Shown one piece after another: positions 2,621-38,372 of a stretch of 38,372 nt of DNA. The DNA comes from a virus (lineage: Duplodnaviria; Heunggongvirae; Uroviricota; Caudoviricetes): IMG/VR virus record IMGVR_UViG_2718218129_000003; one strand, 5' to 3'. Every line of letters begins with the position of its first letter. The first letter of the stretch is position 1. The position numbers and the translations under genes were made by a program. The notes beneath the pieces were generated by a model. That model saw only the letters and a program-made list of their open reading frames with translations, had not been told where the DNA came from and did not search any database.

Positions 2621-2732
2621 AACTGAAGTTGCCCTGAAAATGAAATTTTTTTGCACAACCGCAGAACTTTTCCGCAGGGCATCAGTCTTAATTAGTGCCA
2701 CTGCTTTTCTTTGATGTCCCCATTTTGTGGAG

Positions 2733-2778
2733 CCCATCAACCCCGCCATTTCGGTTCAAGGTTGATGGGTTTTTTGTT
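2733..2778 (+). terminator. Rho-independent terminator downstream of ybjL
   Basis: 10-bp stem CCCATCAACC / GGTTGATGGG with a 17-nt loop, followed by TTTTTTGTT. Confidence 0.5.
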
Positions 2779-2866
2779 GCCTGTTAGATTACTCTCGATA
2801 AAATAATCACTTACTAGCCATATCAGCCTGCAATGGCGACAAAGTGGCGACAGAGAGAGAAAGAGC

Positions 2867-3388
2867 GTGTCCTTATCATTTAGTGACTCAGTAGCAATCG
2901 TCGGAATCATTGTAGGAATTTTGTGTATTGTTGTGGGATTGCCCGCACTTCTAACATTTATCCCACAACGGAAAGAGGCAAAAAGATTACGCAGGGAAAG
3001 ATATGCACAAATTCTAAAAGGTAAAAGTTGGAATAACCTTGGAGTTAACCATGGATTTCCTGAGCCATCACTGGACATACGAATTAACACCGTAGATAAC
3101 GCAGGTACACTTCAAGGTGAGATTATCAACTGCCAAAGTAATGTTATGGATTTAGATAAAATAACATTCCATATCAATGGTAAGCTAACCGATAAAGGAA
3201 CTGCATCAATAACACTATGCACTGCTATCGGATGGCGCCAAGTACCGGTGGGAGTTGCGAAATTACGTTATCGCGAAAAAGATGACACACTAGATTTCAT
3301 CTATCTGCATGATCATAAATTCAATCCAACCTTATCATGGGAACTAAGCCTCCCTCGGTTTACTACCTACGGACTAGTTGGCTGCTAA
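2867..3388 (+). CDS. Hypothetical membrane-anchored protein (N-terminal TM helix), AT-rich cargo gene at the prophage edge
   Basis: 173-aa ORF with a GTG start after a purine-rich stretch. N-terminal hydrophobic helix VAIVGIIVGILCIVVGLPALL followed by a basic stretch. Visibly more AT-rich than flanking host and phage DNA. No family recognised. Confidence 0.5.
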   Translation: MSLSFSDSVAIVGIIVGILCIVVGLPALLTFIPQRKEAKRLRRERYAQILKGKSWNNLGVNHGFPEPSLDIRINTVDNAGTLQGEIINCQSNVMDLDKITFHINGKLTDKGTASITLCTAIGWRQVPVGVAKLRYREKDDTLDFIYLHDHKFNPTLSWELSLPRFTTYGLVGC

Positions 3389-3509
3389 CTCTTTGTATAT
3401 GGTTCATGCCAGTCTGAACCCAAAAGGTAAATGGCTGCATATCCCTTTCTCTGAATTAAACCAGTAAAAACCCTCCAGCGGTGGGTTAATATTAGTAAGC
3501 TAATTGTTC

Positions 3510-3707
3510 TTAAATTCCGTTCGGATGAGGTGGCGCAGCGCTGATTTTTTGCGGGCGGCACACTGACCGCACAAAAGTCTCATGGGTCACGAAGGTATGT
3601 CCACACTCGATGTTAGTGCACTGGTTGTAACGCTCTTTGGTCAATGAAGATACCTGAAAACTGCTGCGAGTATGGGCGGCACTTCCACACAGTGGGCAAA
3701 TCATCAT
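3510..3707 (-). CDS. ogr: Ogr/Delta (186 B) family zinc-finger late transcription activator
   Basis: CPLCGSAAH...C(x4)C zinc-finger pattern typical of P2 Ogr. Located immediately after gene D as in P2 and 186. Start chosen at the internal Met (MICPLCG); the ORF track extends to 3740. Confidence 0.85.
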   Translation of the reverse strand: MMICPLCGSAAHTRSSFQVSSLTKERYNQCTNIECGHTFVTHETFVRSVCRPQKISAAPPHPNGI

Positions 3708-9462: not shown

Positions 9463-10635
9463 TTACGCGCTGACCTGGCTGGCAAAATTCACCAGGTACT
9501 GATCGGTGATGCGCTGACGCAGCATCAGGTTTTCAAGTGGCGGCACTGGCGTGTAGTCGTAGTCGATGGTGAGCTTCCCGGCTTTCAGAGTGTCTTTATC
9601 GTTCACCGACTCATCCAGCCAGCAATCACCACCAATGAGATAGCCCTGACTGACCAGGCTGCGCATTTTGGCGCGGATACCTTCGATAATGTCGCGGGCC
9701 AGCGACGGGTTCAGCGGTTTGTCCACCGCCCACATATGCGCTTCTGCCATCGTGTCCATCAGTACCTGCGCCGTGCGGGTGTAGTTTTCGAAGGCAAAGA
9801 GCGGGTCATCACTCAGGCAGCGGGAACCCCAGAAGCGGAAACCGTCTTTGCGGATAAGCGTGGTGACGTCGTTCTGGTTCAGCAGACCTGCATCGGTTGC
9901 CGGGTCCTGCAGATCCCAGAACACATCAGCAGAAATTCCGGTGACACCGTTCACGCCCACGTTGGACAGGCTTTTGTGCCACCCGGTCTGCTCATCAATT
10001 TTGGCGCGCAGACCGAGCGCACGAGCGGTGGCATATGCCGTTGCTTCGGCATTCAGCAGCGTGTCCCAGCCAGTAAAGTCAGGCCAGATCAGCATCCCTT
10101 CGCGCTGGCTGAAGTTTTCGCGGTAAGTGATCGCCTCCTGCACTGTCTTGCAGCCATACGCTGACAGGTAAGCAAACCCACGCAGGCTTTGCGCCACGCT
10201 CAGCAACTCAGTCGCTACCGCCTTGGTGTCGTGGCCTGGCACGCCGAGAATGCGCGGTTTAACGCCGAGCTGTGACTGGGCAGATAACAGGGCTTTCATA
10301 CCTGTTTTTTTACCTTCAGCAGTCACTGCGCCGATGATATTGGTCGTGGTTTCTTCTTCCGTTTCACCCTGCGGCACACGCACAACAACGGTCACGGGTT
10401 TTGCCTGGTCAGCGATGGCATCCAGCGAGCGGGCCAGTGTGCCGGACTCACCCGCTTTACCGCTGGCAATCAGCACATCAGTGATCAGCACGGGTTTATT
10501 AAGAGGAAACATTTTTGCATCGGCATCATCGCCCGTGCAGACCATACCCACGATGGCGGTGCTCACCGTGGTAATGGATCGGGTGCCTTCGTTGACTTCA
10601 ACAACGCGCACCCCGTGGTGGTAATCCTGAGCCAT
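9463..10635 (-). CDS. FI: Contractile tail sheath protein
   Basis: 390-aa ORF at the head of the FI-FII-E-T-U-D operon. Confidence 0.85.
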
Positions 10636-10711
10636 AGTGGCGAACCTCCTGATTGGATTAGGCTTCGCCCTATGTTGAAGTGATTGTGCCTGACAAACAG
10701 CTAAGCGCAGT

Positions 10712-10729
10712 TGTACCGTTATTCACACA
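10712..10729. promoter_or_regulatory. Candidate Ogr-dependent late promoter dyad (TGT-N12-ACA) upstream of FI
   Basis: TGTACCGTTATTCACACA lies 85 bp upstream of the FI start codon. P2 late promoters carry a TGT-N12-ACA activator site. Confidence 0.35.
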
Positions 10730-10777
10730 AAATGACGGTATTTGTCTACTTGCGGGGATAATCAAAATAATGCTGAT

Positions 10778-11344
10778 TCAGGGGGATTCATTGCTCTTAT
10801 TTGCCGGAAATTTTCTATAAATTGTGGAAACACCCACATCAAAAATCAGTGCAATACGCTGTCTTGATTCTCCGGCCTCGAGTAAGCGCCCAATCTGTGC
10901 CCACTGTTCGGTGGTCAACTTAGGACGGCGTCCACCTACTCTGCCTTTATCACGAGCTGCAGCCAGCCCCGCCCTGGTACGTTCAACTATCAGTTCGCGT
11001 TCCATTTCTGCCAGGGCCCCCATGACATGAAAAAAGAAACGGCCCATTGGGGTGCTGGTATCAATACTGTCAGTCAGGCTTCGGAAATTCACGCCACGCT
11101 GGCGCAACTCTTCTATCAGCGTAACAAGATGCCGCATACTGCGCCCCAACCTGTCCAGCTTCCAGACGACCAGCGTGTCTCCTGCCGATAGTGTCCTGAG
11201 CAGTTTTTTCAGCCCCGGTCTGTCGGACTTAGTGCCACTGATTTTATCCTCAAAAATTCGCTCACATCCCGCGCAGTTCAGTGCATTACGTTGCAAATCG
11301 GTGTTCTGGTCATTTGTTGACACGCGTACATAGCCAATAAGCAT
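10778..11344 (-). CDS. Site-specific DNA invertase (serine recombinase, Gin/Pin/Cin/Hin family)
   Basis: N-terminus MLIGYVRVSTNDQNTDLQ with the catalytic Ser region, and a C-terminal HTH (GVSTIYRKF). Adjacent to inverted 26-bp crossover sites. Confidence 0.9.
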   Translation of the reverse strand: MLIGYVRVSTNDQNTDLQRNALNCAGCERIFEDKISGTKSDRPGLKKLLRTLSAGDTLVVWKLDRLGRSMRHLVTLIEELRQRGVNFRSLTDSIDTSTPMGRFFFHVMGALAEMERELIVERTRAGLAAARDKGRVGGRRPKLTTEQWAQIGRLLEAGESRQRIALIFDVGVSTIYRKFPANKSNESP

Positions 11345-11371
11345 GATCATCCCCCTGAATAAAAACCGGAG

Positions 11372-11872
11372 ATGATGCCAGTTAGCCGTAATCTCTGCAT
11401 TTTCATAAACGTTGGTTTGGGAGAAGGTTCGGCATTACCCGTTGGTGTGCCTGTTCCGTGGCCTTCTGCAACACCGCCTACTGGCTGGCTGAAATGTAAC
11501 GGTGCGGCTTTTTCTGCTGAAGAATACCCGGAACTGGCAAAGGCTTACCCGACAAATAAATTGCCTGATTTACGCGGTGAGTTTATTCGTGGCTGGGATG
11601 ACGGTCGTTCAGTAGATACTGGTCGCAGCGTTATGTCTGCACAGAGCGCGCGTGTTGGTTATATTAAATTTGATATGGGAATTTATGGTATTCCTGCAGG
11701 TACGGGCTCACTTATTTTGTCCAATGATATCTTAATTACGGGTCATGACAGTAATGGCTCAAGCCTATTGCTGAACAACTCTAATGAGCGGGCAATTGGT
11801 GAAATGTATGTCGTTCCTGCCGATACTCGCCCACGGAATATTGCATTTAACTATATCGTGAGGGCTGCATAA
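11372..11872 (+). CDS. Alternative (currently silent) tail-fibre C-terminal receptor-binding cassette
   Basis: The ORF frame passes through the left crossover site encoding NVGLGEGS, matching LGLGEAAK at the right site in gene H. It has no credible independent start and would fuse to the H constant region after inversion. Confidence 0.6.
   Translation: MMPVSRNLCIFINVGLGEGSALPVGVPVPWPSATPPTGWLKCNGAAFSAEEYPELAKAYPTNKLPDLRGEFIRGWDDGRSVDTGRSVMSAQSARVGYIKFDMGIYGIPAGTGSLILSNDILITGHDSNGSSLLLNNSNERAIGEMYVVPADTRPRNIAFNYIVRAA
11400..11425. repeat. Invertase crossover site (gix/hix-like), left
   Basis: TTTTCATAAACGTTGGTTTGGGAGAA resembles gix/hix sites (AAACC..GGTTT core) and is an inverted copy of the site at 13227..13252. 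Confidence 0.75.
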
Positions 11873-12474
11873 TGGATAACGCTGTATTAAATAGCGAGTT
11901 TATTGCTACAAAGGCGGGAAATATTACCGTCTATAACTATGATGGCGAAACACGGGAATATATTTCCACTTCAAATGAATATCTTGCCATTGGTGTCGGT
12001 ATCCCTGCATATTCCTGTTTAGATGCCCCTGGCACACATAAGGCAGGTTATGCTATCTGCCGTTCGATGGATTTAAACTCATGGGAATATGTGCCAGACC
12101 ATCGCGGTGAAATTGTCTATAACACCGAAACGGGAGACGCCAAAGAAATCACAACTCCGGGTGATTACCCCGAAAAAACAACCACTATCGCCCCGTTAAC
12201 GCCATACGATAAATGGGATGGTGAGAAATGGGTGACGGATACCGAGGCACAGCATAGCGCCGCAGTAGACGCGGCAGAAGCACAACGTCAGTCACTGATT
12301 GATACTGCAATGGCTTCCATTAGTCTGATTCAGTTGAAATTGCAGGCCGGACGGAAACTGACGCAGGCAGAAACAACCCGACTTAACGCCATGCTGGATT
12401 ACATTGACGCGGTGACGGCAACAGATACCAGCACCGCGCCGGATGTCATCTGGCCTGAACTGCCGGAGGCGTAG
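11872..12474 (+). CDS. Tail fibre assembly protein (partner of the silent cassette)
   Basis: 200-aa ORF whose C-terminus (LDYIDAVTATDTSTAPDVIWPELP) is related to the C-terminus of the convergent Tfa at 12446..12889. Confidence 0.7.
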   Translation: MDNAVLNSEFIATKAGNITVYNYDGETREYISTSNEYLAIGVGIPAYSCLDAPGTHKAGYAICRSMDLNSWEYVPDHRGEIVYNTETGDAKEITTPGDYPEKTTTIAPLTPYDKWDGEKWVTDTEAQHSAAVDAAEAQRQSLIDTAMASISLIQLKLQAGRKLTQAETTRLNAMLDYIDAVTATDTSTAPDVIWPELPEA

Positions 12475-12889
12475 GCCATTCAATATCTGGCGCACCGGAA
12501 GTATCGACCAGCTCCAGTGCGTCCAGATAATCCAGCCACAAATTATATTGCGCCAGTTCCTCACCTTTCAGACGACCAATAGCCGCTTTACCAGGCCATT
12601 GTTTACTGTTCATGTGTTCGTTGGCCTGATTAAGCAATAATTGTCTTTCTGATTCTGCCTGTTGAATAAGTTCTTCATGTGATGGTTGAGGTATTTCAGC
12701 CCATGTGGGAAAACCATTTACCCCTGCAACTCGGATTTTCCCTTGTGGCGGTTCCGCCATATATTTTACAGAAATGTTATCAGGAATATCTAATGCATCA
12801 GCGGGCCATGTTCCATTTACTTCATAAGTATTTTTTAAATTAACAGCATAAAATGCATTTTCCGAGGGGGAATAAATATATTGATTCAT
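12446..12889 (-). CDS. G: Tail fibre assembly protein (gpG-like, expressed orientation)
   Basis: 147-aa ORF directly downstream of H with the Tfa C-terminal motif WLDYLDALELVDTSGAPDIEWP. Confidence 0.75.
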   Translation of the reverse strand: MNQYIYSPSENAFYAVNLKNTYEVNGTWPADALDIPDNISVKYMAEPPQGKIRVAGVNGFPTWAEIPQPSHEELIQQAESERQLLLNQANEHMNSKQWPGKAAIGRLKGEELAQYNLWLDYLDALELVDTSGAPDIEWPTPPAVQAR

Positions 12890-12890
12890 A

Positions 12891-14288
12891 TTATCTTCCT
12901 ATTGCGATAATCATAGTTCCATACAAACCATTTCCGGTTGATACTTTTAAGGTTACTGATGTCCTTGTTGTCGTGTACCCCATAAGTTTAAAGGTCGGAG
13001 CAGCCGTTAATGTGCCATCAGACCATAAGGCACTAACAGCAAGTGCACCTGAAGGAAATGCAATAGGGAAATTACCAGTAGTTCCGTTAGTGTCCGCCCC
13101 ATAAACATTCATCGAAAACATTTGGACAATATGACCACTTGGTAACTGAAACCAGTTTTTGCCAGATGGGAATGCAGACATATCTGGTATCTGATTTTCC
13201 CCTGTTCCCACATTTCGTTTTGCCGCTTCTCCCAAACCAAGGTATGTGAGAAGACCAGCTACATCCTTTCCACTCAAATTAGTCAGCGTATTGTCCAGCG
13301 GTTGTTTACCTGCCAGCGCATTAAGCATTGTCGTGGCAAAGTTCGGATCATTCCCCAGTGCCGCCGCCAGTTCGTTCAGTGTATCCAGTGCCGCAGGTGC
13401 AGAACCCACCATTCCTGCAATCGCCGATTTCACAAAAGCCGTAGTGGCAATCTGTGTATTATTGACCGACTGCGCCGCCGTAGGGGCTGTTGGCGTTCCG
13501 GTGAGTGCCGGACTCGACAGCGGCGCTTTCAGTGCCAGCGCATTGTTAATGGTGGTACTGAATTTCGGATCATTGTTAATGGCTACGGCTATTTCTTTCA
13601 GCGTGTCCAGCGTGGCTGGCGCACCATTAATAAGAGCCGTCAGTGCCGCCTGAACAAATGCGGTGGTCGCAATCTGCGTGGTGTTATTCCCCTCCGCTGG
13701 CGTTGGCGCTTTGGGTGTTCCGGTCAATGTCGGGCTTTCTTTGGGTGCATACTGTGAATGCGGGTCCGGTGCGGCAAGATGTTTTGCCATCTTATCATCC
13801 ACGAACACCTTCAGCTCCAGTACCTTGTCATCCACATACTTGCGGGTTGCCAGCACGACGGCAGGGTCGATTTTCAGGGTGATATTGTCCGTGCTGCTGG
13901 TAATCAGCACCATGCGCACGGTCTGGGTGCGCCCGCTGCCTTCAGCCAGTTGCGGCTTATAGCTTTCCGGGCAGTTGCCTACGGCAATCAATGCCCCGGA
14001 CTCATCAAACAGACCCACTTCACGTATCCACCAACCACCCTCATTTTCAGGGATCACCTGTTCAGCAATAATCTGGCTGCTGTTCTGCGGGTCGATATAG
14101 AGCATATTCAGCGCAGCCCGGCGTTTCTCATTTACCAGTGCCGTCTGCTTTGCGTCCGGCGCCGACAATGCTCCGCCGCCATCGCCCACCGCCATATGGG
14201 TAATTTTTAGCGGCACACCTAGCGCGGCGGCGCTGGCAAGTTTCGCCGCGCCAATATCCGTCAGCAGGGTATAAAATTTTGTGCTCAT
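12891..14288 (-). CDS. H: Tail fibre protein (constant N-terminal region plus current variable C-terminus)
   Basis: 465-aa ORF following I. Internal Ala/Thr-rich tandem repeats. Crosses the right crossover site. Confidence 0.85.
   Translation of the reverse strand: MSTKFYTLLTDIGAAKLASAAALGVPLKITHMAVGDGGGALSAPDAKQTALVNEKRRAALNMLYIDPQNSSQIIAEQVIPENEGGWWIREVGLFDESGALIAVGNCPESYKPQLAEGSGRTQTVRMVLITSSTDNITLKIDPAVVLATRKYVDDKVLELKVFVDDKMAKHLAAPDPHSQYAPKESPTLTGTPKAPTPAEGNNTTQIATTAFVQAALTALINGAPATLDTLKEIAVAINNDPKFSTTINNALALKAPLSSPALTGTPTAPTAAQSVNNTQIATTAFVKSAIAGMVGSAPAALDTLNELAAALGNDPNFATTMLNALAGKQPLDNTLTNLSGKDVAGLLTYLGLGEAAKRNVGTGENQIPDMSAFPSGKNWFQLPSGHIVQMFSMNVYGADTNGTTGNFPIAFPSGALAVSALWSDGTLTAAPTFKLMGYTTTRTSVTLKVSTGNGLYGTMIIAIGR
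13227..13252. repeat. Invertase crossover site (gix/hix-like), right, inside gene H
   Basis: TTCTCCCAAACCAAGGTATGTGAGAA. Its first 14 bp are identical to the reverse complement of the left site. Confidence 0.75.
13320..13735. repeat. Tandem direct repeat (two units of about 200 bp) inside tail fibre gene H
   Basis: Encodes two copies of a roughly 69-aa unit (…NNTQIATTAFV…APATLDTL…NDP.F.TT…NALA.K.PL…). Visible at both DNA and protein level. Confidence 0.6.
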
Positions 14289-14890
14289 GGATTCACTCTC
14301 ATTGTGTCAATAACATGGACCGCCCCGCCTTCATGCGCGGTGCCGCCGGAAATAATTGTTTCGTTGATATACGGATAGATCGTGATTTCTTCGCCAAGAT
14401 AACTGGCGGCTCCCACCCAATGCGAACCGCTGGTCTGCAGATTGATGGACATGCCGATCATGTGACGGCTACATGGTTTGGCATCGCTTATCAGTCGCTC
14501 AAGTTCCAGATAGGTATCTTCAGTGATGCCCTGGTCCTGCACACCAATGTCCAGACGAAACGTGCCCGGTGTTTCTCCGGTCTGCCACCACTCAATAATG
14601 CGGATCAGGAAGCCGAACGGCTCCACCACCCGCCGTACGGCACTGGTGGTTCCTTTGTGCTGATGAATATAAAAAGCATCCTTCACTACCTGGCGTTTGA
14701 CGCTTTCTGTCCAGCCCTCGTCCCAGCGATCCACAGAGAACGCCCAGGCGAGATAAGGCAGGAAACTGACCGGACAGGTTGCCGGATTCCACAAGTCACG
14801 CAGTGACACCTGCAGATCAGAAATCCCGCTACAGGTTTGCGCCAGTCGGCGCTCCAGTGGCGTTGAACCCGGTGGCAGCAGACTATTCAT
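14285..14890 (-). CDS. I: Baseplate assembly protein I
   Basis: 201-aa ORF between J and H, overlapping the H start by 4 nt. Confidence 0.8.
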   Translation of the reverse strand: MNSLLPPGSTPLERRLAQTCSGISDLQVSLRDLWNPATCPVSFLPYLAWAFSVDRWDEGWTESVKRQVVKDAFYIHQHKGTTSAVRRVVEPFGFLIRIIEWWQTGETPGTFRLDIGVQDQGITEDTYLELERLISDAKPCSRHMIGMSINLQTSGSHWVGAASYLGEEITIYPYINETIISGGTAHEGGAVHVIDTMRVNP

Positions 14891-15791
14891 CCGTTCCCCC
14901 GTTGGTCACGCTCCACTGCGTACATGATGCCGCCTGCGTTTTGTTCAGGACCACATCAGCCAGCGGTGAAGCCAGCTCCACACGTTGAACACCCTCAACA
15001 TGCAGCGCGGCAAAAATAGCACTACGGCGAATATCCCGACCGAGCCGCGTCTGACTGGCGATGTACCTCTGCAGGCTGACTTTTGCCGCTGCCATTACCG
15101 GCTCTGCTTCCGGTCCCGGATAAAGAAAAATGGTAGCTTCCACACGGTACGGGATGATTTCTGCGCTGCGAACCGTCAGACGGTCAGCCACCGGGCGGAC
15201 GTTCTCACTGTTCAGGGCTTTCTCCACCACATCCAGCAAGTCTTTTTCTGCTGTTCCGTCGCCTTCACGACTCAGGACAGTCAGTACCACCTCTGCAGGT
15301 GCCGGACTGGTTGCACTGGCATCCGCCACCCGACCGTCGGCGCTTCGGGCATGAAATTCATAAGCGGCAGTTGGCCCCGCAACAGAAAGCCCTTCAAAGG
15401 CTGCAGGCACACGCAGGCGTAACGCTTCATCGCTTTCCATCACAGCCGCAACGGGTGGCACAGCGTCATTATCAGCAGGCGTCACCGTCAGGCGTTTCAC
15501 GTTGTAGTTGGCAGCGAGCTGGTCAAGATCGCCGCCCATCGCGTAAGCCACCATCACAGCCTGCGCGGCTTCGTTAATGCGCTGGCGCAGAAGCAACTCA
15601 CGGTAAGCGTTCTCCTGCAGCAATTTGGTGACGGGTTCAGATTCCAGTTCCAGCGTGCGGATCACGGCTTCCTGCTCATCTTTCGGATGAAGCACCACAA
15701 ATTCGGCCTTGCGTTCGACAAGCAGCGTCTCAAAGTCCGGCACATCGACAATCTGCGGCGCAGGCAACTGCGAAAGGTCAATCACTGCCAT
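14883..15791 (-). CDS. J: Baseplate assembly protein J
   Basis: Start chosen at the internal Met (MAVIDLSQLPAP), which resembles the P2 J N-terminus. The ORF track extends to 15830. Confidence 0.85.
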   Translation of the reverse strand: MAVIDLSQLPAPQIVDVPDFETLLVERKAEFVVLHPKDEQEAVIRTLELESEPVTKLLQENAYRELLLRQRINEAAQAVMVAYAMGGDLDQLAANYNVKRLTVTPADNDAVPPVAAVMESDEALRLRVPAAFEGLSVAGPTAAYEFHARSADGRVADASATSPAPAEVVLTVLSREGDGTAEKDLLDVVEKALNSENVRPVADRLTVRSAEIIPYRVEATIFLYPGPEAEPVMAAAKVSLQRYIASQTRLGRDIRRSAIFAALHVEGVQRVELASPLADVVLNKTQAASCTQWSVTNGGTDE

Positions 15792-16137
15792 TCTCTGCTC
15801 CTGTTGATACGGAAAGGGAAACAGGCACACCGTTATTACGCCGCCCGGTCAGCCCCACCACCATTGAACCGTCAAAATTGCTGTTGATGGTGATGGAATC
15901 CAGCGTCAGCCGTGGCTCCCAGCGACTCAGCGCCACATACACTGCCGACATGACCTGCAGGCGTAATGCCGGATTTTGTGGCTGGTCTATCAGTGTCGAC
16001 AGCAGGGAACCATATTCACGACGGGCAATGCGGCAACCCTGCGGTGTCAGCAGAATGTCCCGCACCGACTGACGCAGATGGTCAATATCAGTAATGGCTT
16101 TACCGCTGGTATTGTTCATCCCGATATAAAGCGTCAT
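15778..16137 (-). CDS. W: Baseplate wedge protein W
   Basis: 119-aa ORF between V and J. Confidence 0.8.
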   Translation of the reverse strand: MTLYIGMNNTSGKAITDIDHLRQSVRDILLTPQGCRIARREYGSLLSTLIDQPQNPALRLQVMSAVYVALSRWEPRLTLDSITINSNFDGSMVVGLTGRRNNGVPVSLSVSTGAENGSD

Positions 16138-16712
16138 ACCGGGCCTCCGGTTGTATCGCCGCCTTTCAGGACGCCAGTATGCTGATGCGCATCAACCACG
16201 ATCCCGTTAGAACTCATCGCTCCGCCGCCCTGGATAACGCCACCATTGATCACCACTTCGCTGTTAATGCGCGTGCGGTCAGCCTCCAGTACAAACTCAC
16301 TGGTTTTCATAGTGATGTTGTCAGCGGCCTCAATGACCATTGATTTGATGCCCCTGACATACCAGCGCCCGGTGGCGGGTTCGTATTCAAACCAGCCACC
16401 GTCAGGATGTTCTGTCACGCAGGCGTCCGCCGACGTCGACGGTGGTGCGAACTGATTCGAATAGACAGCGGGCAGCGCAAAGGCGGTTTCCAGATTGCCG
16501 CCCAGACTCAGCAGCACCACCTGCTCACCTTCCGATGGTCGCCACCATGTGCGGGCATTCCCGGCACGCAGCGTCAGCCAGCTAATCCAGTTGGTTTCAA
16601 GCTCGCCCGTTTTCACCCGGCAAAGCCAGTTTTCCCTGTCCACTTCGGTGACTACCCCTGTGCGAATCAGGTTGGTGATAAGGCGCATGATTTCGGTTAA
16701 TTGTGCGTTCAT
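16134..16712 (-). CDS. V: Baseplate spike / central hub protein V
   Basis: 192-aa ORF, first gene of the V-W-J-I-H operon. Confidence 0.85.
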   Translation of the reverse strand: MNAQLTEIMRLITNLIRTGVVTEVDRENWLCRVKTGELETNWISWLTLRAGNARTWWRPSEGEQVVLLSLGGNLETAFALPAVYSNQFAPPSTSADACVTEHPDGGWFEYEPATGRWYVRGIKSMVIEAADNITMKTSEFVLEADRTRINSEVVINGGVIQGGGAMSSNGIVVDAHQHTGVLKGGDTTGGPV

Positions 16713-25600: not shown

Positions 25601-26266
25601 TTAAAGATCCGGATCTACAGGCTCATGATATAGATTTACAGGGTAATGAATAACTTCATAATTCAGTTGAGTAACTGTGTGAACATGCTGGCTATAAAAA
25701 ACCAATGGATTTTTTTGACAAGGAGTAATCGTTATAGATTTACAGGCATGAATTCTTGGTGCGAATTTATCTAAATGCGCCTTCCAGTTGCTCATCATTT
25801 CATTACATTTTCTATTACGAGTATAGATAATCAATCCACCACTTGCGCTGTCTACGGTCCCTGTACTATATCGTTCAGTGAGTTGAGCATACCCTTTAAA
25901 TAAATAACTATATGAAGATGTATGTTTTTTGGCTTCGCCATGCCAAATATAATCCTTTAGTTTTATTGTAATATCACAATGTCCGCGCTGATTATTTTCA
26001 TGAAATGCTTCAATGCCCATATCTTTATTTTTGATATTGGCCAATAAAATTAAAGTAAGCTGATCTTCTGTTAAATCGAAGTTTAACTTATTTGAATTCT
26101 CTTCTATTTCCTTTACAGCAGAATCAAGTTCAATCCTGACAAATTGTTTGAAATTATCGTACGATTGAAGTGCAAATCTAACACGAGTAATAGAAGCATT
26201 AATACGCTGAAGAAAAATATCATTATCAATATCAGCCAAACTCATTGCTGCAGACATTTTTAACAT
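25601..26266 (-). CDS. Hypothetical protein, third gene of an AT-rich three-gene cargo operon
   Basis: 221-aa ORF sharing one nucleotide with the upstream gene. No recognised family. Contains a D-x13-E-x-K pattern (HCDITIKLKDYIWHGEAKK). Confidence 0.6.
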   Translation of the reverse strand: MLKMSAAMSLADIDNDIFLQRINASITRVRFALQSYDNFKQFVRIELDSAVKEIEENSNKLNFDLTEDQLTLILLANIKNKDMGIEAFHENNQRGHCDITIKLKDYIWHGEAKKHTSSYSYLFKGYAQLTERYSTGTVDSASGGLIIYTRNRKCNEMMSNWKAHLDKFAPRIHACKSITITPCQKNPLVFYSQHVHTVTQLNYEVIHYPVNLYHEPVDPDL

Positions 26267-26712
26267 CAGATAATATCCTTTGATTTAGATTCATCTAATG
26301 TAAAAAAAGGAAATACGAATGACTTATAGTCATACATAAGCTCCCCTGTAAATGGGTTTACTAAAGATTGACTGATTTCCGCCTCAATAACTTCCTCTAT
26401 TTCAAGTTCTACAGGGTCATGAAAATCATCAATGAACCAATAATTGAGTTTTAAAAAATCAACCTTTGGGCTACAAAGAATTTGTATGGCCGGATAGATA
26501 ACCTGCTCATACGTTTCTGGCTGTAAAACCTTATTATAACCACCAGCTATATTAAATAAATCCTTATAACTTAAAGCTATATTTGATGATTTTTTAGCCC
26601 TTGCCTCGATTTCATCGTACAAATAGCAAGCTAACGCCCCAATTTCAGGGCGTTCTGCACACATTTCTTTGATGATCTTGGGCATATCACCATCCTTCAT
26701 TGCTGACTCCAA
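26266..26712 (-). CDS. Hypothetical acidic protein, second gene of the cargo operon
   Basis: 148-aa ORF whose start abuts the stop of the 371-aa gene. No recognised family. Confidence 0.6.
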   Translation of the reverse strand: MESAMKDGDMPKIIKEMCAERPEIGALACYLYDEIEARAKKSSNIALSYKDLFNIAGGYNKVLQPETYEQVIYPAIQILCSPKVDFLKLNYWFIDDFHDPVELEIEEVIEAEISQSLVNPFTGELMYDYKSFVFPFFTLDESKSKDII

Positions 26713-27819
26713 TTATAATATCAGCTTTGTGAGGGTTTCGAAATCATCTTTGGATATACATTTACTTAATATAGCATAGTTAACAGGAGAGCAACTACTC
26801 CCTCCTAGATGCCTGCGGAGTGTTCCCGGAATGATAAGCTCTACGTTATCCGCTAATTGCAGTTTTGGATTATTTCTATCAACTCTAATTCCAATACGAT
26901 ACAAACCAATACTGCCTACTGCTTTGATGCCTTCCTTATTAAACAAATCATCACGTAAGTCTTTAGTGGCCACATTTTTCTTTTCTTTATGCGTAGTCCC
27001 CTCATTCGTCAAAAATGACAAATCAAAGACTTTATAGCTTAATTTTGAATAAGGCAATGAATTTTGTTTGAAAATTGGCTCAATTAACGGATAAAAATCT
27101 TTTTCCGATGATTTAAATTCATAACCGACATGATTATACAATTCACGAATAATGTTACTCTTTGCAAAAGTAACATTATCACCAATAATATTACCATTAG
27201 TATCTACCAAAACATGAATTTTATTAGTAACAGAGTCTAATATACAGACATCAAAACATTGTCGCTTTTCTTTTCGCTTTGCAATAATTTCATCAAACTG
27301 CTTGTATTGCGCAAGTGCTGACGGGGGAATTTTTTCTCTTACAACTAATTCTCTGACAGATGAAAAAACAAGTATTGACTGGGTGTTTTGAATAGAATAA
27401 TTAACAAGTTCAGGTTGATTTTTTACAGCATTTTGCAATTGGACATCATCAAGGATCGAATCAACCAATAATGATGGTTGATTCATCAAATTCCATTGAA
27501 AACTAAATCTGTCATTTAGTGTTTTAATTACACTATTATCTACAGTCAAACTAAATATTGCTTTTTCACCATAAACGACCTGACCAAAAATTAGGTCATT
27601 TACGTTTGCCATAATGCCATCAAACTTTTGCCTATCTTTACTTTTAAGATCAATGAGGCTTTCTAGTATTTTTTCGTTTGTTGCTTCACGCCCCCTACCT
27701 GTTGGCAGCCCTAAAGACGCAATAATTGGCCTTGCAACGTTCCATGTGAAACGTTCAGTTAAGGTCAAGATCGACTTTAACTCAGACTCAGAAAGCACTA
27801 CTGGGACACTACCTGTCAT
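26713..27819 (-). CDS. Hypothetical protein, first gene of the cargo operon
   Basis: Start placed at the ATG preceded by AGGTG (the ORF track starts at GTG 27828). About 368 aa, no Walker A motif, no recognised family. Confidence 0.6.
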   Translation of the reverse strand: MTGSVPVVLSESELKSILTLTERFTWNVARPIIASLGLPTGRGREATNEKILESLIDLKSKDRQKFDGIMANVNDLIFGQVVYGEKAIFSLTVDNSVIKTLNDRFSFQWNLMNQPSLLVDSILDDVQLQNAVKNQPELVNYSIQNTQSILVFSSVRELVVREKIPPSALAQYKQFDEIIAKRKEKRQCFDVCILDSVTNKIHVLVDTNGNIIGDNVTFAKSNIIRELYNHVGYEFKSSEKDFYPLIEPIFKQNSLPYSKLSYKVFDLSFLTNEGTTHKEKKNVATKDLRDDLFNKEGIKAVGSIGLYRIGIRVDRNNPKLQLADNVELIIPGTLRRHLGGSSCSPVNYAILSKCISKDDFETLTKLIL

Positions 27820-27978
27820 AACTTGCACCTAGTCATCCAAAAAGCAATAAGAATTTGCTCTTGTCTTAATTTATCCTTCGATACCTAACAAATTACCTCA
27901 ATGTTGAAAAAATTTGCAAGCCATTTGCTTCTAAAAAGCGACCTTACTCAGAGTGTTACAAAACTAAGCGAGCGCGCG

Positions 27979-28549: not shown

Positions 28550-29521
28550 CTAACTTCCCTTTATTTTTAGTTCGTTAAAAATATCTTCGATTACCAATCC
28601 ATTTTTAATTAAATGCTGCACAATATTTTCATATTCTTTGAAATTGTCAATATGCAAGCCATGATCTTTTTCTTTAGCAATTCTCGTGATCACATGTACG
28701 CTATCTGTATAATCAATCTTATTTTTAAGAGCATTGAGCAAACTTATACTTGGATTTAAAGTTGAGATTAGTTTACCAAACTCGGTTTGTAACTCTTTGG
28801 ATTGATGAGTATTAATATAATCTTCAATAAAAGCATCAAAATCTCCTTGCAACTCAACTTTAAGGTTTGCTATATCCTTCATAATATTTTCTAACTCAGA
28901 AGAGTATGGCCGACCATGTTTAAAATCGAATAAAAAAAGATTTGCTTTCTCAATACATTCGCAAATATAAAAAACTGTATAAAGGGAATATTTTTGCTTA
29001 ACTTTTAATTTTCCATAGGCGTAGTGAACCAAAAGATGCTTAGCATTAATAACATTTTTATTTTTTGAAAGTTGATTGTTAGTTGCAGGCGGATAAATTA
29101 CCACATCAACATTATCTAAATTTTGAAAAGTTTTTAAAATAAGAGCCTCAACCTTATTCCAATCGAGGCCCCCATTACCACAGCCTAAAGGTGGTATTGA
29201 TATTGATGTAATTTTTTTTTCATCTATAATTTTTGCTAAAGATTCAAGGCCTTGCGAGATAAAATCATATGTTGATTTTTTTCTCCAACTATCTTTAGTG
29301 GGAAAGTTTACAATTATTTTTCCCTTTTCCTCTACAATTAAAACCTGTCCAATTTTCATTGTACCAGTGGCGCATGCTCTCTTATAAACTTCGAAATTAT
29401 AGGGAAAAGTTTCTTTAAAAGCCAAAGCAATACCCTTTCCCATGACTCCTTGGCAGTTTACAGCATTCACAAGAGCTTGCGATGTAGAGTTTAGAAGATT
29501 TCCGCTTGCATACTTAATCAT
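28550..29521 (-). CDS. darG: DarG-like antitoxin (N-terminal macrodomain ADP-ribosyl hydrolase)
   Basis: Macrodomain motifs GNLL…ALVNAVNCQGVMGKGIALAFK…NFPTK…IPPLGCGNGGLDW. Directly downstream of the DarT gene. Confidence 0.8.
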   Translation of the reverse strand: MIKYASGNLLNSTSQALVNAVNCQGVMGKGIALAFKETFPYNFEVYKRACATGTMKIGQVLIVEEKGKIIVNFPTKDSWRKKSTYDFISQGLESLAKIIDEKKITSISIPPLGCGNGGLDWNKVEALILKTFQNLDNVDVVIYPPATNNQLSKNKNVINAKHLLVHYAYGKLKVKQKYSLYTVFYICECIEKANLFLFDFKHGRPYSSELENIMKDIANLKVELQGDFDAFIEDYINTHQSKELQTEFGKLISTLNPSISLLNALKNKIDYTDSVHVITRIAKEKDHGLHIDNFKEYENIVQHLIKNGLVIEDIFNELKIKGS

Positions 29522-29525
29522 AGAA

Positions 29526-30107
29526 TTAGAACATATAAGTGTTGATCGTTATCAATATACTTAATCCTTGTTGTTTTATCAACCCTTCAACATATTTTTT
29601 TTCGTTATCATTTTTGACAAAGATGCAATGGAAATTTTTCGGCTCGACCGTTACACTTGATAAACACTCAGCCATACATACAGATTTGCATTCTGCATTT
29701 TTATAATCCCTTATATTCATTAGCTCCCAGTCAATTTGGGCCATTCCTTGTTCATAATCTAAGAGGTCTATAACAGAACTGGTGGATAATGGATGTTTAG
29801 GGATAACTTTCCAACCATTTTCTTTGGCAAATGCCCGACAAACCGAAATAATACAAAATGATTTTTCCTTATGATCTTTCAGGACTCTTCCATCAAATGG
29901 ATTCTTAGTAAAGAAATGAAAAGGAACCATTGTTTGCAAATTTAATGCTTCGCGACCTGTTATTATTTCACCGTCGGCCACATCAACAAACTCACCTTTT
30001 ACTGATGCACGAGATCTTAATCCTGTATCTAAAATACTAGGTAGATTATCCATACATGTTAAATGATAGAGAAGATACTGATCTTCAATTCTTTTCCTTT
30101 CGCTCAT
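29526..30107 (-). CDS. darT: DarT-like DNA ADP-ribosyltransferase toxin (DUF4433)
   Basis: N-terminal LLYHLTCMDNLPSILDTGL, plus VPFHFF and a C-terminal AEC motif. Tightly linked upstream of the macrodomain gene. Confidence 0.8.
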   Translation of the reverse strand: MSERKRIEDQYLLYHLTCMDNLPSILDTGLRSRASVKGEFVDVADGEIITGREALNLQTMVPFHFFTKNPFDGRVLKDHKEKSFCIISVCRAFAKENGWKVIPKHPLSTSSVIDLLDYEQGMAQIDWELMNIRDYKNAECKSVCMAECLSSVTVEPKNFHCIFVKNDNEKKYVEGLIKQQGLSILITINTYMF

Positions 30108-37131: not shown

Positions 37132-37319
37132 CTTTTGCTTTTATATCTGCGCCTAAAATAAAAATGAGCCACAGGTTAACCGCAAAAGTTACATGATCAC
37201 ATAGCAAAAAGAATAGCCTACTTCATTATGGCTTCAGTGAGATGTATGGTCGCAGGATTTCATACATTGACACTGGTTATACATACAGTAAAAATGCTCT
37301 CTATTGGAGGGCATTTTTT

Positions 37320-38372
37320 ATGGCTGTACGAAAACTCACCACAGGAAAATGGCTTTGCGAATGTTACCCCGCCGGACGTAGTGGGCGTCGTGTGCGTAAA
37401 CAATTCGCCACCAAAGGCGAAGCACTGGCTTTTGAGCGTCACACGATGGAAGAAACCGAAGCAAAGCCCTGGCTAGGTGAATCAGTGGATCGTCGAACAC
37501 TGAAAGACGTGGTTGAGCTATGGTTCAAACTACATGGTAAATCACTGACTGCTGGGCAGCATGTCTATGACAAATTGCTGCTGATGGTTGACGCTCTGGG
37601 CAATCCCCTTGCAACTGATCTAACCTCTAAAATGTTTGCCCACTATCGAGATAAACGCCTGACAGGTGAGATCTACTTCAGCGAGAAATGGAAGAAAGGA
37701 GCAAGCCCGGTCACCATTAACCTGGAGCAAAGCTATCTAAGTAGTGTTTTTAGCGAACTATCCCGCCTGGGCGAATGGTCGTATCCGAACCCACTGGAGA
37801 ACATGCGAAAATTCACCATCGCAGAAAAAGAGATGGCATGGCTTACCCATGAGCAGATTGTTGAATTACTGGCTGATTGCAAACGTCAGGACCCAATTCT
37901 GGCACTGGTAGTTAAGATATGCTTAAGCACAGGCGCACGCTGGCGAGAAGCCGTAAATCTTACTCGTTCACAGGTGACCAAATACCGAATTACCTTTGTA
38001 AGAACGAAGGGGAAGAAAAACAGAAGCATCCCTATCAGTAAAGAGCTTTACGAAGAGATCATGGCGCTTGATGGGTTCAATTTCTTCACAGACTGCTATT
38101 TTCAATTTTTATCCGTGATGGAAAAAACGTCTATCGTGCTCCCTCGCGGTCAACTCACACACGTTCTGCGCCATACGTTTGCGGCGCACTTCATGATGTC
38201 GGGTGGAAACATTCTGGCCTTACAAAAAATTCTCGGACACCACGATATAAAAATGACTATGCGTTACGCACATCTGGCACCGGATCATCTGGAAACGGCG
38301 CTCCGTTTCAATCCTCTGGCAACGCTGCCAAGTGGCGACAAAGTGGCGGCAGCGGTTGGCATTACCCCGTAA
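37320..38372 (+). CDS. int: Tyrosine integrase (P2/186 family)
   Basis: Start chosen at MAVRKLTTGKW with a GGAGG ribosome-binding site. C-terminal catalytic region has R…HVLRHTFA…LGHHDIKMTMRYAHL, the R-H-R-Y signature. Stop codon is at the window end. Confidence 0.85.
   Translation: MAVRKLTTGKWLCECYPAGRSGRRVRKQFATKGEALAFERHTMEETEAKPWLGESVDRRTLKDVVELWFKLHGKSLTAGQHVYDKLLLMVDALGNPLATDLTSKMFAHYRDKRLTGEIYFSEKWKKGASPVTINLEQSYLSSVFSELSRLGEWSYPNPLENMRKFTIAEKEMAWLTHEQIVELLADCKRQDPILALVVKICLSTGARWREAVNLTRSQVTKYRITFVRTKGKKNRSIPISKELYEEIMALDGFNFFTDCYFQFLSVMEKTSIVLPRGQLTHVLRHTFAAHFMMSGGNILALQKILGHHDIKMTMRYAHLAPDHLETALRFNPLATLPSGDKVAAAVGITP

Follow-up and report, generated by a model that had tools for sequence, protein, structure and literature searches.

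A rare accessory gene with a predicted membrane-anchored beta-barrel product beside the rybB attachment site of a 186-type prophage

The open reading frame (ORF) at positions 2867..3388 (+ strand; GTG start, 173 aa) of the analysed window (the whole stretch of 38,372 nucleotides of viral DNA) is best explained as a functional accessory (“moron”) gene of a 186-type phage of the P2 family that is integrated at the 3' end of rybB. The gene is genuine, well delimited and rare, and it represents a new family within a familiar category. An earlier description of the window made from its letters alone (hereafter the sequence-only reading) had reported at this site an ORF of 173 codons with one N-terminal transmembrane (TM) helix that is convergent with ogr; ORF listing and hydropathy analysis recovered it as described, and the ogr gene is indeed located on the - strand (3707..3510).

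The left boundary of the prophage was mapped by comparison of attL with the attR of a complete relative, AR_452 (L001), with two empty sites of prophage-free E. coli (L003, L004), in which rcdA directly follows rybB, and with BLR(DE3) (L002). The hairpin that had been taken for the ybjL terminator proved to be the host gene of the RybB sRNA (2700..2778, + strand; Rfam RF00110, 105.3 bits, E 8e-21, full length 1-79); the attB core resides in its terminator, and the phage attachment core coincides with the 3' end of the gene. According to the attL/attR/empty-site comparison, the attL core and overlap region (2765..2791) consists of the 14 nt ATGGGTTTTTTGTT at the end of the RybB terminator (2765-2778), identical in attL, attR and the empty sites, followed by approximately 13 imperfectly matching nt; this core is present in a single copy in the window. 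On the phage side, two tandem integrase arm-type sites form the P' arm (2834..2853; TGGCGACA-N3-TGGCGACA), and the same pair with the same 11-nt spacing recurs as the P arm (38333-38352) inside the 3' end of the integrase gene int (37242..38372, + strand; the annotated homologue starts at approximately 37320). Read on the other strand (reverse complement), the arm sites match the 186-type integrase consensus tgccGCCActt (PMC3448106), and they are conserved in BLR, in L014 and in all loci that carry a homologue of the ORF. The regulatory genes of the prophage (CI with a Phage_CI_repr domain, CII, Fil and a DinI-like protein) are likewise in agreement with a 186-type phage.

The att core (2765-2778) and the arm sites (2834-2853) therefore place the ORF within the prophage: its start codon is located 88 nt inside the prophage and 13 nt past the P'-arm sites, and in the circular phage it would follow int in the same direction at a distance of approximately 180 nt. 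The sequence-only reading had left this assignment to a comparison with the empty locus downstream of ybjL and had named the presence of the ORF in prophage-free strains as the observation that would speak against it; the ORF is absent from both empty sites. The same reading had also considered a remnant of an older insertion at the same site. The AT-rich composition of the ORF, which resembles neither flank, would agree with a relic of a former rybB insertion or with a host gene outside the present prophage. This origin is nevertheless very improbable: the ORF is missing from the empty sites; it is flanked by the att core on one side and ogr on the other, and a second core or hybrid att site was not found in the window; the arm sites directly precede it in all loci, with a distance of 88-90 nt from core to start; it travels with 186-type prophages in five genera; and the same arrangement of ORF and att recurs outside Escherichia. 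Judged by these junctions, both a host gene and a leftover from an earlier insertion are ruled out.

Two further observations concern the attachment site itself. The 13 nt that follow the core (compare window positions 2779-2791) exist in two versions in prophage-free E. coli, ATCTAAAACTTAT and GCCTGAAATTTAT; the latter is identical to the phage side of the BLR(DE3) attL, occurs in roughly half of the sampled rows and looks like a scar from the excision of a P2-like phage. In the attR of AR_452 (L001 37217-37259), a hairpin of the phage's own, AACCCATTTACATAAATGGGTTTTTTGTT, ends in the att core; attP thus holds a RybB-like terminator, at which the transcription of int probably ends.

The phage that carries the insertion is common, and the insertion is rare. 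The ogr gene was detected at an identity of at least 90% in 1,153 of 5,426 complete E. coli genomes, and all five ogr loci examined (BLR(DE3) and four sampled loci, L013-L016) are situated at rybB. In these five, ogr ends 3-5 nt from the arm sites with no gene in between, as opposed to an insertion of approximately 650 nt between the P'-arm sites and ogr in the window. The ORF was present in only nine of the 5,426 genomes, with 100% identity throughout and always in combination with this version of the P' arm. Presence or absence at a precise junction among collinear relatives is a distinguishing mark of morons, as is a base composition unlike that of the phage backbone, and the ORF, a horizontally mobile cargo gene, exhibits both. 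Homology to the common phage resumes within ogr, at approximately position 3562; the module made up of the P' arm, the ORF and the 3' end of ogr therefore stems from a different lineage. Apart from base 3512, the sole difference within the first 4 kb, AR_452 matches the window exactly in the host flank, the ORF and ogr, and the tail genes of the two diverge by 3-5%; this pattern is ordinary mosaicism. The substitution at 3512 generates an earlier stop codon in the late activator gene ogr/B (3510..3707, - strand), which encodes 65 aa in the window and 71 aa in AR_452. A purine-rich run together with the first codons of the ORF (2856-2873) was also considered as a relic of the ancestral ogr 3' end; its similarity to L014 is short and of low complexity, and this candidate was rejected.

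The deviating base composition noted in the sequence-only reading was borne out by the GC content of 40.2% (GC3 31.6%), compared with 50-57% for the neighbors: 51% for ybjL, 54% for gpD, 56% for the tape measure gene, 50.5% for ogr and 50% for the whole prophage. The homologues have 38-40% GC whatever the host. Pairwise dN/dS values of 0.27, 0.16 and 0.11 between the ORF and the three closest homologue loci point to purifying selection, and the reading frame, the TM helix and the barrel described below are preserved across homologues of 25-92% identity. Given this conservation of frame and architecture and the dN/dS range of 0.11-0.27, the ORF is a real coding gene. Its GTG start aligns with the ATG of the homologues in Klebsiella aerogenes and L012. 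Some gene callers start the homologues at an upstream ATG and thereby add the residues “MATKWRQR”, which are simply translated arm sites; in the window, this ATG is out of frame owing to a difference of 2 nt.

In the databases searched, the family is tiny, limited to prophages of Enterobacteriaceae and unannotated. A profile search of 1.84 billion representative proteins returned eight proteins, two of which (P0010, 1602 aa; P0012, 1079 aa) were spurious, BspA-type leucine-rich repeats having summed their scores against a profile stretch of 40 residues. Among 185,579 species-representative genomes, a single one, that of Huaxiibacter chinensis, contains the ORF, at the same rybB-ORF-ogr locus; the GenBank phage set (INPHARED genomes; blastn, distant mode) gave no match to the ORF, and IMG/VR no relative. 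The 90% cluster comprises Escherichia (199 contigs), Enterobacter, Citrobacter, Klebsiella and Huaxiibacter, all five with intact copies of more than 90% identity, and every member is labelled “hypothetical protein”; a literature search by RefSeq accession found no paper. In addition, a predicted protein of 305 aa (P0019), encoded on a Logan contig of 4 kb, matches 42% of the query with 100% identity and otherwise consists of PQQ-like repeats; it is probably a chimera of assembly or gene calling.

In the close relatives, the gene is the first inside attL, with a core-to-start distance of 88-90 nt and an aligned GTG or ATG start, and one locus (L011) is organized alike at a tRNA att site. When the search was repeated with a broader profile, roughly twelve clusters from Salmonella, Enterobacter, Kluyvera and Siccibacter emerged as a distant branch. 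Its homology to the branch of the window is solid at the level of sequence profiles (hhalign probability 98.9%, E 2e-17; E 3e-7 in an earlier profile search built without it). The gene of the distant branch is located between int and the att core, downstream of cI; its overlap with the int stop codon, which amounts to 4 or 14 nt, makes it part of the cI-int lysogenic operon. Both branches thus always occupy the int-att-ogr interval in the same direction as int, on opposite sides of the crossover point. Two loci with additional peculiarities were encountered. In Enterobacter sp. (L022, 1-8528), two tandem 186-type immunity/int modules are present, the second followed by int-ORF-[tRNA 3' fragment]-ogr, i.e. 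by an attP-like junction inside the chromosome, which suggests a tandem or rearranged prophage. In Siccibacter colletis (L023, 6420-6971; int-linked branch), a gene with bPH_3/SHOCT domains between CI and int is another small cargo in the lysogenic operon.

Homologues also reside in decayed prophages. In K. aerogenes (L006), the homologue is intact in a rybB remnant that lacks ogr, int and the structural genes and has kept GmrSD and CI; the remnant (10001-16215) holds only the ORF homologue, a portal fragment, the GmrSD-type enzyme, CI and an unannotated protein of 488 aa. Locus L012 is eroded to a similar extent, again with an intact homologue; the losses in these prophages concern int, ogr or the tail genes. 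Such retention would fit a function that benefits the host, an argument weakened by the persistence of ogr next to att in remnants as well.

The prophage of the window carries further cargo. The hotspot between gpA and gpQ contains a DarT/DarG toxin-antitoxin pair (28550-30107, - strand; 31-34% GC; PADLOC E 2e-36 and 3e-80; Pfam DarT and Macro), adjoined by three tightly packed AT-rich ORFs (25601-27828, - strand; 371, 148 and 221 aa; 33-35% GC) that have no Pfam or PADLOC match and constitute a candidate defence operon in the main P2 hotspot. At 10778-12474, a Cin/Gin-type serine invertase (Resolvase and HTH_7) has as its neighbors, on the opposite strand, an alternative C-terminus of the tail fibre and genes for tail-fibre assembly; judging from this gene arrangement, the region is an invertible host-range segment.

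With regard to expression, a sigma-70-like promoter candidate (TTGCCT-16 nt-TAAAAT; 2777..2804, + strand; 9/12 in a consensus scan) is entirely phage-encoded and located approximately 60 nt upstream of the start codon; a score of 9/12 is not above the shuffle expectation for this region, and among five loci the -35 element is conserved and the -10 element partly so. A scan for the Ogr-type late promoter motif TGT-N12-ACA gave no occurrence near or upstream of the ORF, and control by a late promoter was ruled out on this ground. The hairpin between the ORF and ogr (3460..3496) possesses a U-run on the - strand, where it would serve as the ogr terminator, and is weak on the + strand (-9.7/-10.6 kcal/mol with a z of only -1.1); L008 and L012 exhibit a better GC hairpin at the matching position. 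In phage 186, cI and int form the lysogenic pL operon. The gene of the distant branch is coupled to int and should therefore be expressed in lysogens; in the window, integration separates the ORF from int, so that a promoter of its own would be needed. Morons possess their own promoter and terminator and are expressed from the repressed prophage; for the ORF, the promoter-like site (2777-2804) and the hairpin (3460-3496) are candidates at consensus level for these two elements.

The N-terminal hydrophobic segment (residues ~9-32; 2891..2962, + strand) was recognized from hydropathy, charge distribution and the predicted structure: the mean Kyte-Doolittle value is 2.95 over 19 residues from residue 11, the preceding tail MSLSFSDS has no lysine or arginine, and the 23 residues past the helix carry a net charge of +7. 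Application of the positive-inside rule predicts an N-out/C-in anchor, with the barrel in the cytoplasm, for all members. AlphaFold2, run on an alignment of seven sequences (pLDDT 79, pTM 0.69), modeled one long helix (residues 5-50) that includes the TM segment and a basic juxtamembrane part; the remainder (residues 53-173; 3023..3385, + strand) forms an up-and-down beta-barrel of eight strands. In the model, the eight antiparallel strands are arranged in up-and-down order and the barrel is closed, as is characteristic of calycin-like folds. Accordingly, the product is predicted to cross the inner membrane once, exposing a short N-terminus to the periplasm and an avidin/lipocalin-like barrel to the cytoplasm.

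Conserved in both branches are W55, N57, G59, the GWR motif (122-124), Y146, L147, N153, R164 and F165; according to the strand order of the model, these residues should be situated at strand ends at the same mouth of the barrel. The predicted fold is of a ligand- or peptide-binding type, and the domain looks like a binding module. An HDH motif (148-150) was considered as a metal or catalytic site and dismissed; it is not conserved in the distant, int-linked branch, and catalysis is therefore unlikely.

The database searches offered no assignment. At E<=10, Pfam assigned no family to the window protein; for 12 members, it yielded none of relevance, and NCBIfam gave nothing meaningful for either; the sole PHROGs match was a holin-like one (E 0.05) confined to the TM segment, and PADLOC returned only PglZ (0.045), PycTM (0.031) and MTase (0.037), each for one member only. 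Similarity to known superinfection-exclusion (Sie), abortive-infection (Abi) or defence families was thus not detected in Pfam, PHROGs, NCBIfam or PADLOC. Matches to PglZ, holin, CtaJ, PycTM, RepB, HIRAN and LapA were discarded, all having E>0.03 and covering only the TM or basic helix, as was that to the third/fourth domain of TcaA (PF22820), reached by P0011 alone (23.9 bits versus a cut-off of 27) and by none of the 11 other members. A profile sequence search of the PDB produced only noise (E~1), and Foldseek against BFVD and the PDB nothing at E<=0.001.

The sequence-only reading had regarded the product as a possible superinfection-exclusion or abortive-infection factor. This idea, still putative, becomes more plausible through the position of the gene as att-side cargo, the lack of a late-promoter motif in the scan and the overlap with int in the distant branch. 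As a tentative assignment, short of an even chance, the ORF may encode an exclusion factor that is expressed in the lysogen and acts at the inner membrane from its cytoplasmic side. The prophage would make the protein during lysogeny, and the protein would shield the lysogen from other phages: its barrel might bind a conserved partner, either a host inner-membrane protein used for entry or an entry protein of the incoming phage, and this binding would block productive genome entry, i.e. result in superinfection exclusion.

Exclusion is favored because single-pass membrane proteins encoded adjacent to int or the repressor gene are the classical signature of Sie genes. The lactococcal Sie2009-type proteins, HK97 gp15 and T4 Imm are likewise products of small genes (about 80-200 aa) located beside the integration/immunity module, and they share with the ORF the AT-rich character of the cargo, the N-terminal membrane anchor and, likely, the expression in the lysogen. 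The same comparison applies to the prophage-borne P22 SieA (PMC10883804). The ORF product agrees with this group in its prophage-internal gene and predicted membrane location; it differs in that homology or sequence similarity to a characterized Sie protein was not detected, and in that its soluble domain is predicted to be a cytoplasmic, calycin-like barrel. Classical entry-blocking Sie proteins act mostly in the periplasm or within the membrane, and a cytoplasmic domain is atypical for them; the predicted cytoplasmic rather than periplasmic position of the soluble domain therefore restricts the conceivable mechanisms of exclusion. A second reason for favoring exclusion is that membrane-anchored, cytoplasmic proteins of the SNIPE type, a defence protein facing the cytoplasm and associating with the injection machinery, engage that machinery.

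A third reason lies in the genomic position. P2-like phages possess hotspots for accessory and defence genes (Rousset 2022, PMC9122126; PMC13586616), and in the accessible part of the latter source the int-att interval is reported as a minor defence hotspot with 3% of the systems. The ORF resembles the variable cargo of these hotspots, and its distant branch occupies the listed int-att interval; the copy of the window is located on the opposite side of the att core, in the att-ogr interval, which is not among the hotspots listed in that part of PMC13586616. None of the five related E. coli loci examined has a gene in this interval, and PADLOC did not recognize the ORF. Speaking against exclusion, the retention in decayed prophages could be merely positional, and the polar residues that are conserved suggest a ligand that is conserved too, not a fast-evolving phage target, and agree equally well with a sensor.

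The barrel also invites comparison with the S-2TMbeta proteins (Cap15 of CBASS, OptE of Panoptes). A stand-alone abortive-infection effector that works like Cap15/OptE by disrupting the membrane is conceivable and rather unlikely; the barrel would gain or lose a small molecule on infection, the anchors would oligomerize and the inner membrane would be depolarized before the invader's cycle ends, a sequence of events of the same low probability. The resemblance to Cap15 is at the fold level only: S-2TMbeta proteins have two TM helices versus one in the ORF product, HMM matches (Pfam S_2TMBeta, PADLOC CBASS effector models) were not obtained, and the modeled barrel seems to be closer to avidins and de novo barrels than to Cap15. 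A CD-NTase/mCpol partner is lacking as well, the neighbors being rybB/att and ogr, or int and att in the distant branch, and a second-messenger synthase was absent from the ten scanned cargo ORFs of the prophage (DarTG, DinI, CI, invertase, tail proteins); the ORF product thus shows neither the two-pass element nor the profile match nor the synthase operon of that class. Less probable still, and a long shot, is that the family represents a minimal one-gene immune sensor whose barrel monitors a small molecule or N-terminal peptide of host or phage and which permeabilizes the inner membrane upon a change of ligand; it would be a stand-alone, synthase-free counterpart of Cap15/OptE in the 186-type int-att-ogr interval.

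The 8-stranded barrels of avidin/streptavidin, lipocalins and Gid4 share 7-17% identity with that of the ORF and have no sequence-level relationship to it; in contrast to the ORF product, anchored by its N-terminal TM helix, these proteins are soluble or secreted. Barrels of the calycin type typically bind small hydrophobic ligands or peptides, which would suit a lysogenic-conversion factor unrelated to defence, i.e. a tethered binding protein that alters host physiology (metabolite, lipid or transporter). The retention of the gene in grounded prophages and its position 88 nt past the RybB terminator agree with such a role; integration puts the gene directly downstream of the sigma-E-dependent rybB, and a tie to envelope stress is possible. 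On the other hand, members of the family are also located away from rybB, at a tRNA att site or behind int, so that linkage to rybB is not a family trait, and its extreme rarity (9/5,426 E. coli genomes, 1/185,579 species genomes) contrasts with what is expected of a generally useful host trait; lysogenic conversion is considered unlikely.

Slightly less credence still is given to a role in the phage cycle itself, be it the establishment of lysogeny together with Int, a holin/antiholin-like timing of lysis or the countering of host defence. The orientation shared with int, the translational coupling to int in the distant branch, the distance of approximately 180 nt from int in the circular phage and the weak holin-like PHROG match would be compatible with it. 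However, this match is limited to the TM segment, the gene is located outside the lysis cassette with no late promoter motif upstream, it is missing from the vast majority of viable relatives, and it is intact in prophages that are no longer able to make virions.

For the P2/186 phages, the gene represents a clean and small candidate for a defence screen, which will not surprise the specialist. If the proposed reading is true, the int-att-ogr interval serves as a cargo slot along its entire length, on either side of the att core; and if the protein excludes phages, an unannotated single-gene system would be added to the P2/186 defence repertoire. To our knowledge, the predicted combination of a one-helix anchor with a cytoplasmic calycin-like barrel has no characterized counterpart among exclusion proteins, and its mechanism could therefore be informative.
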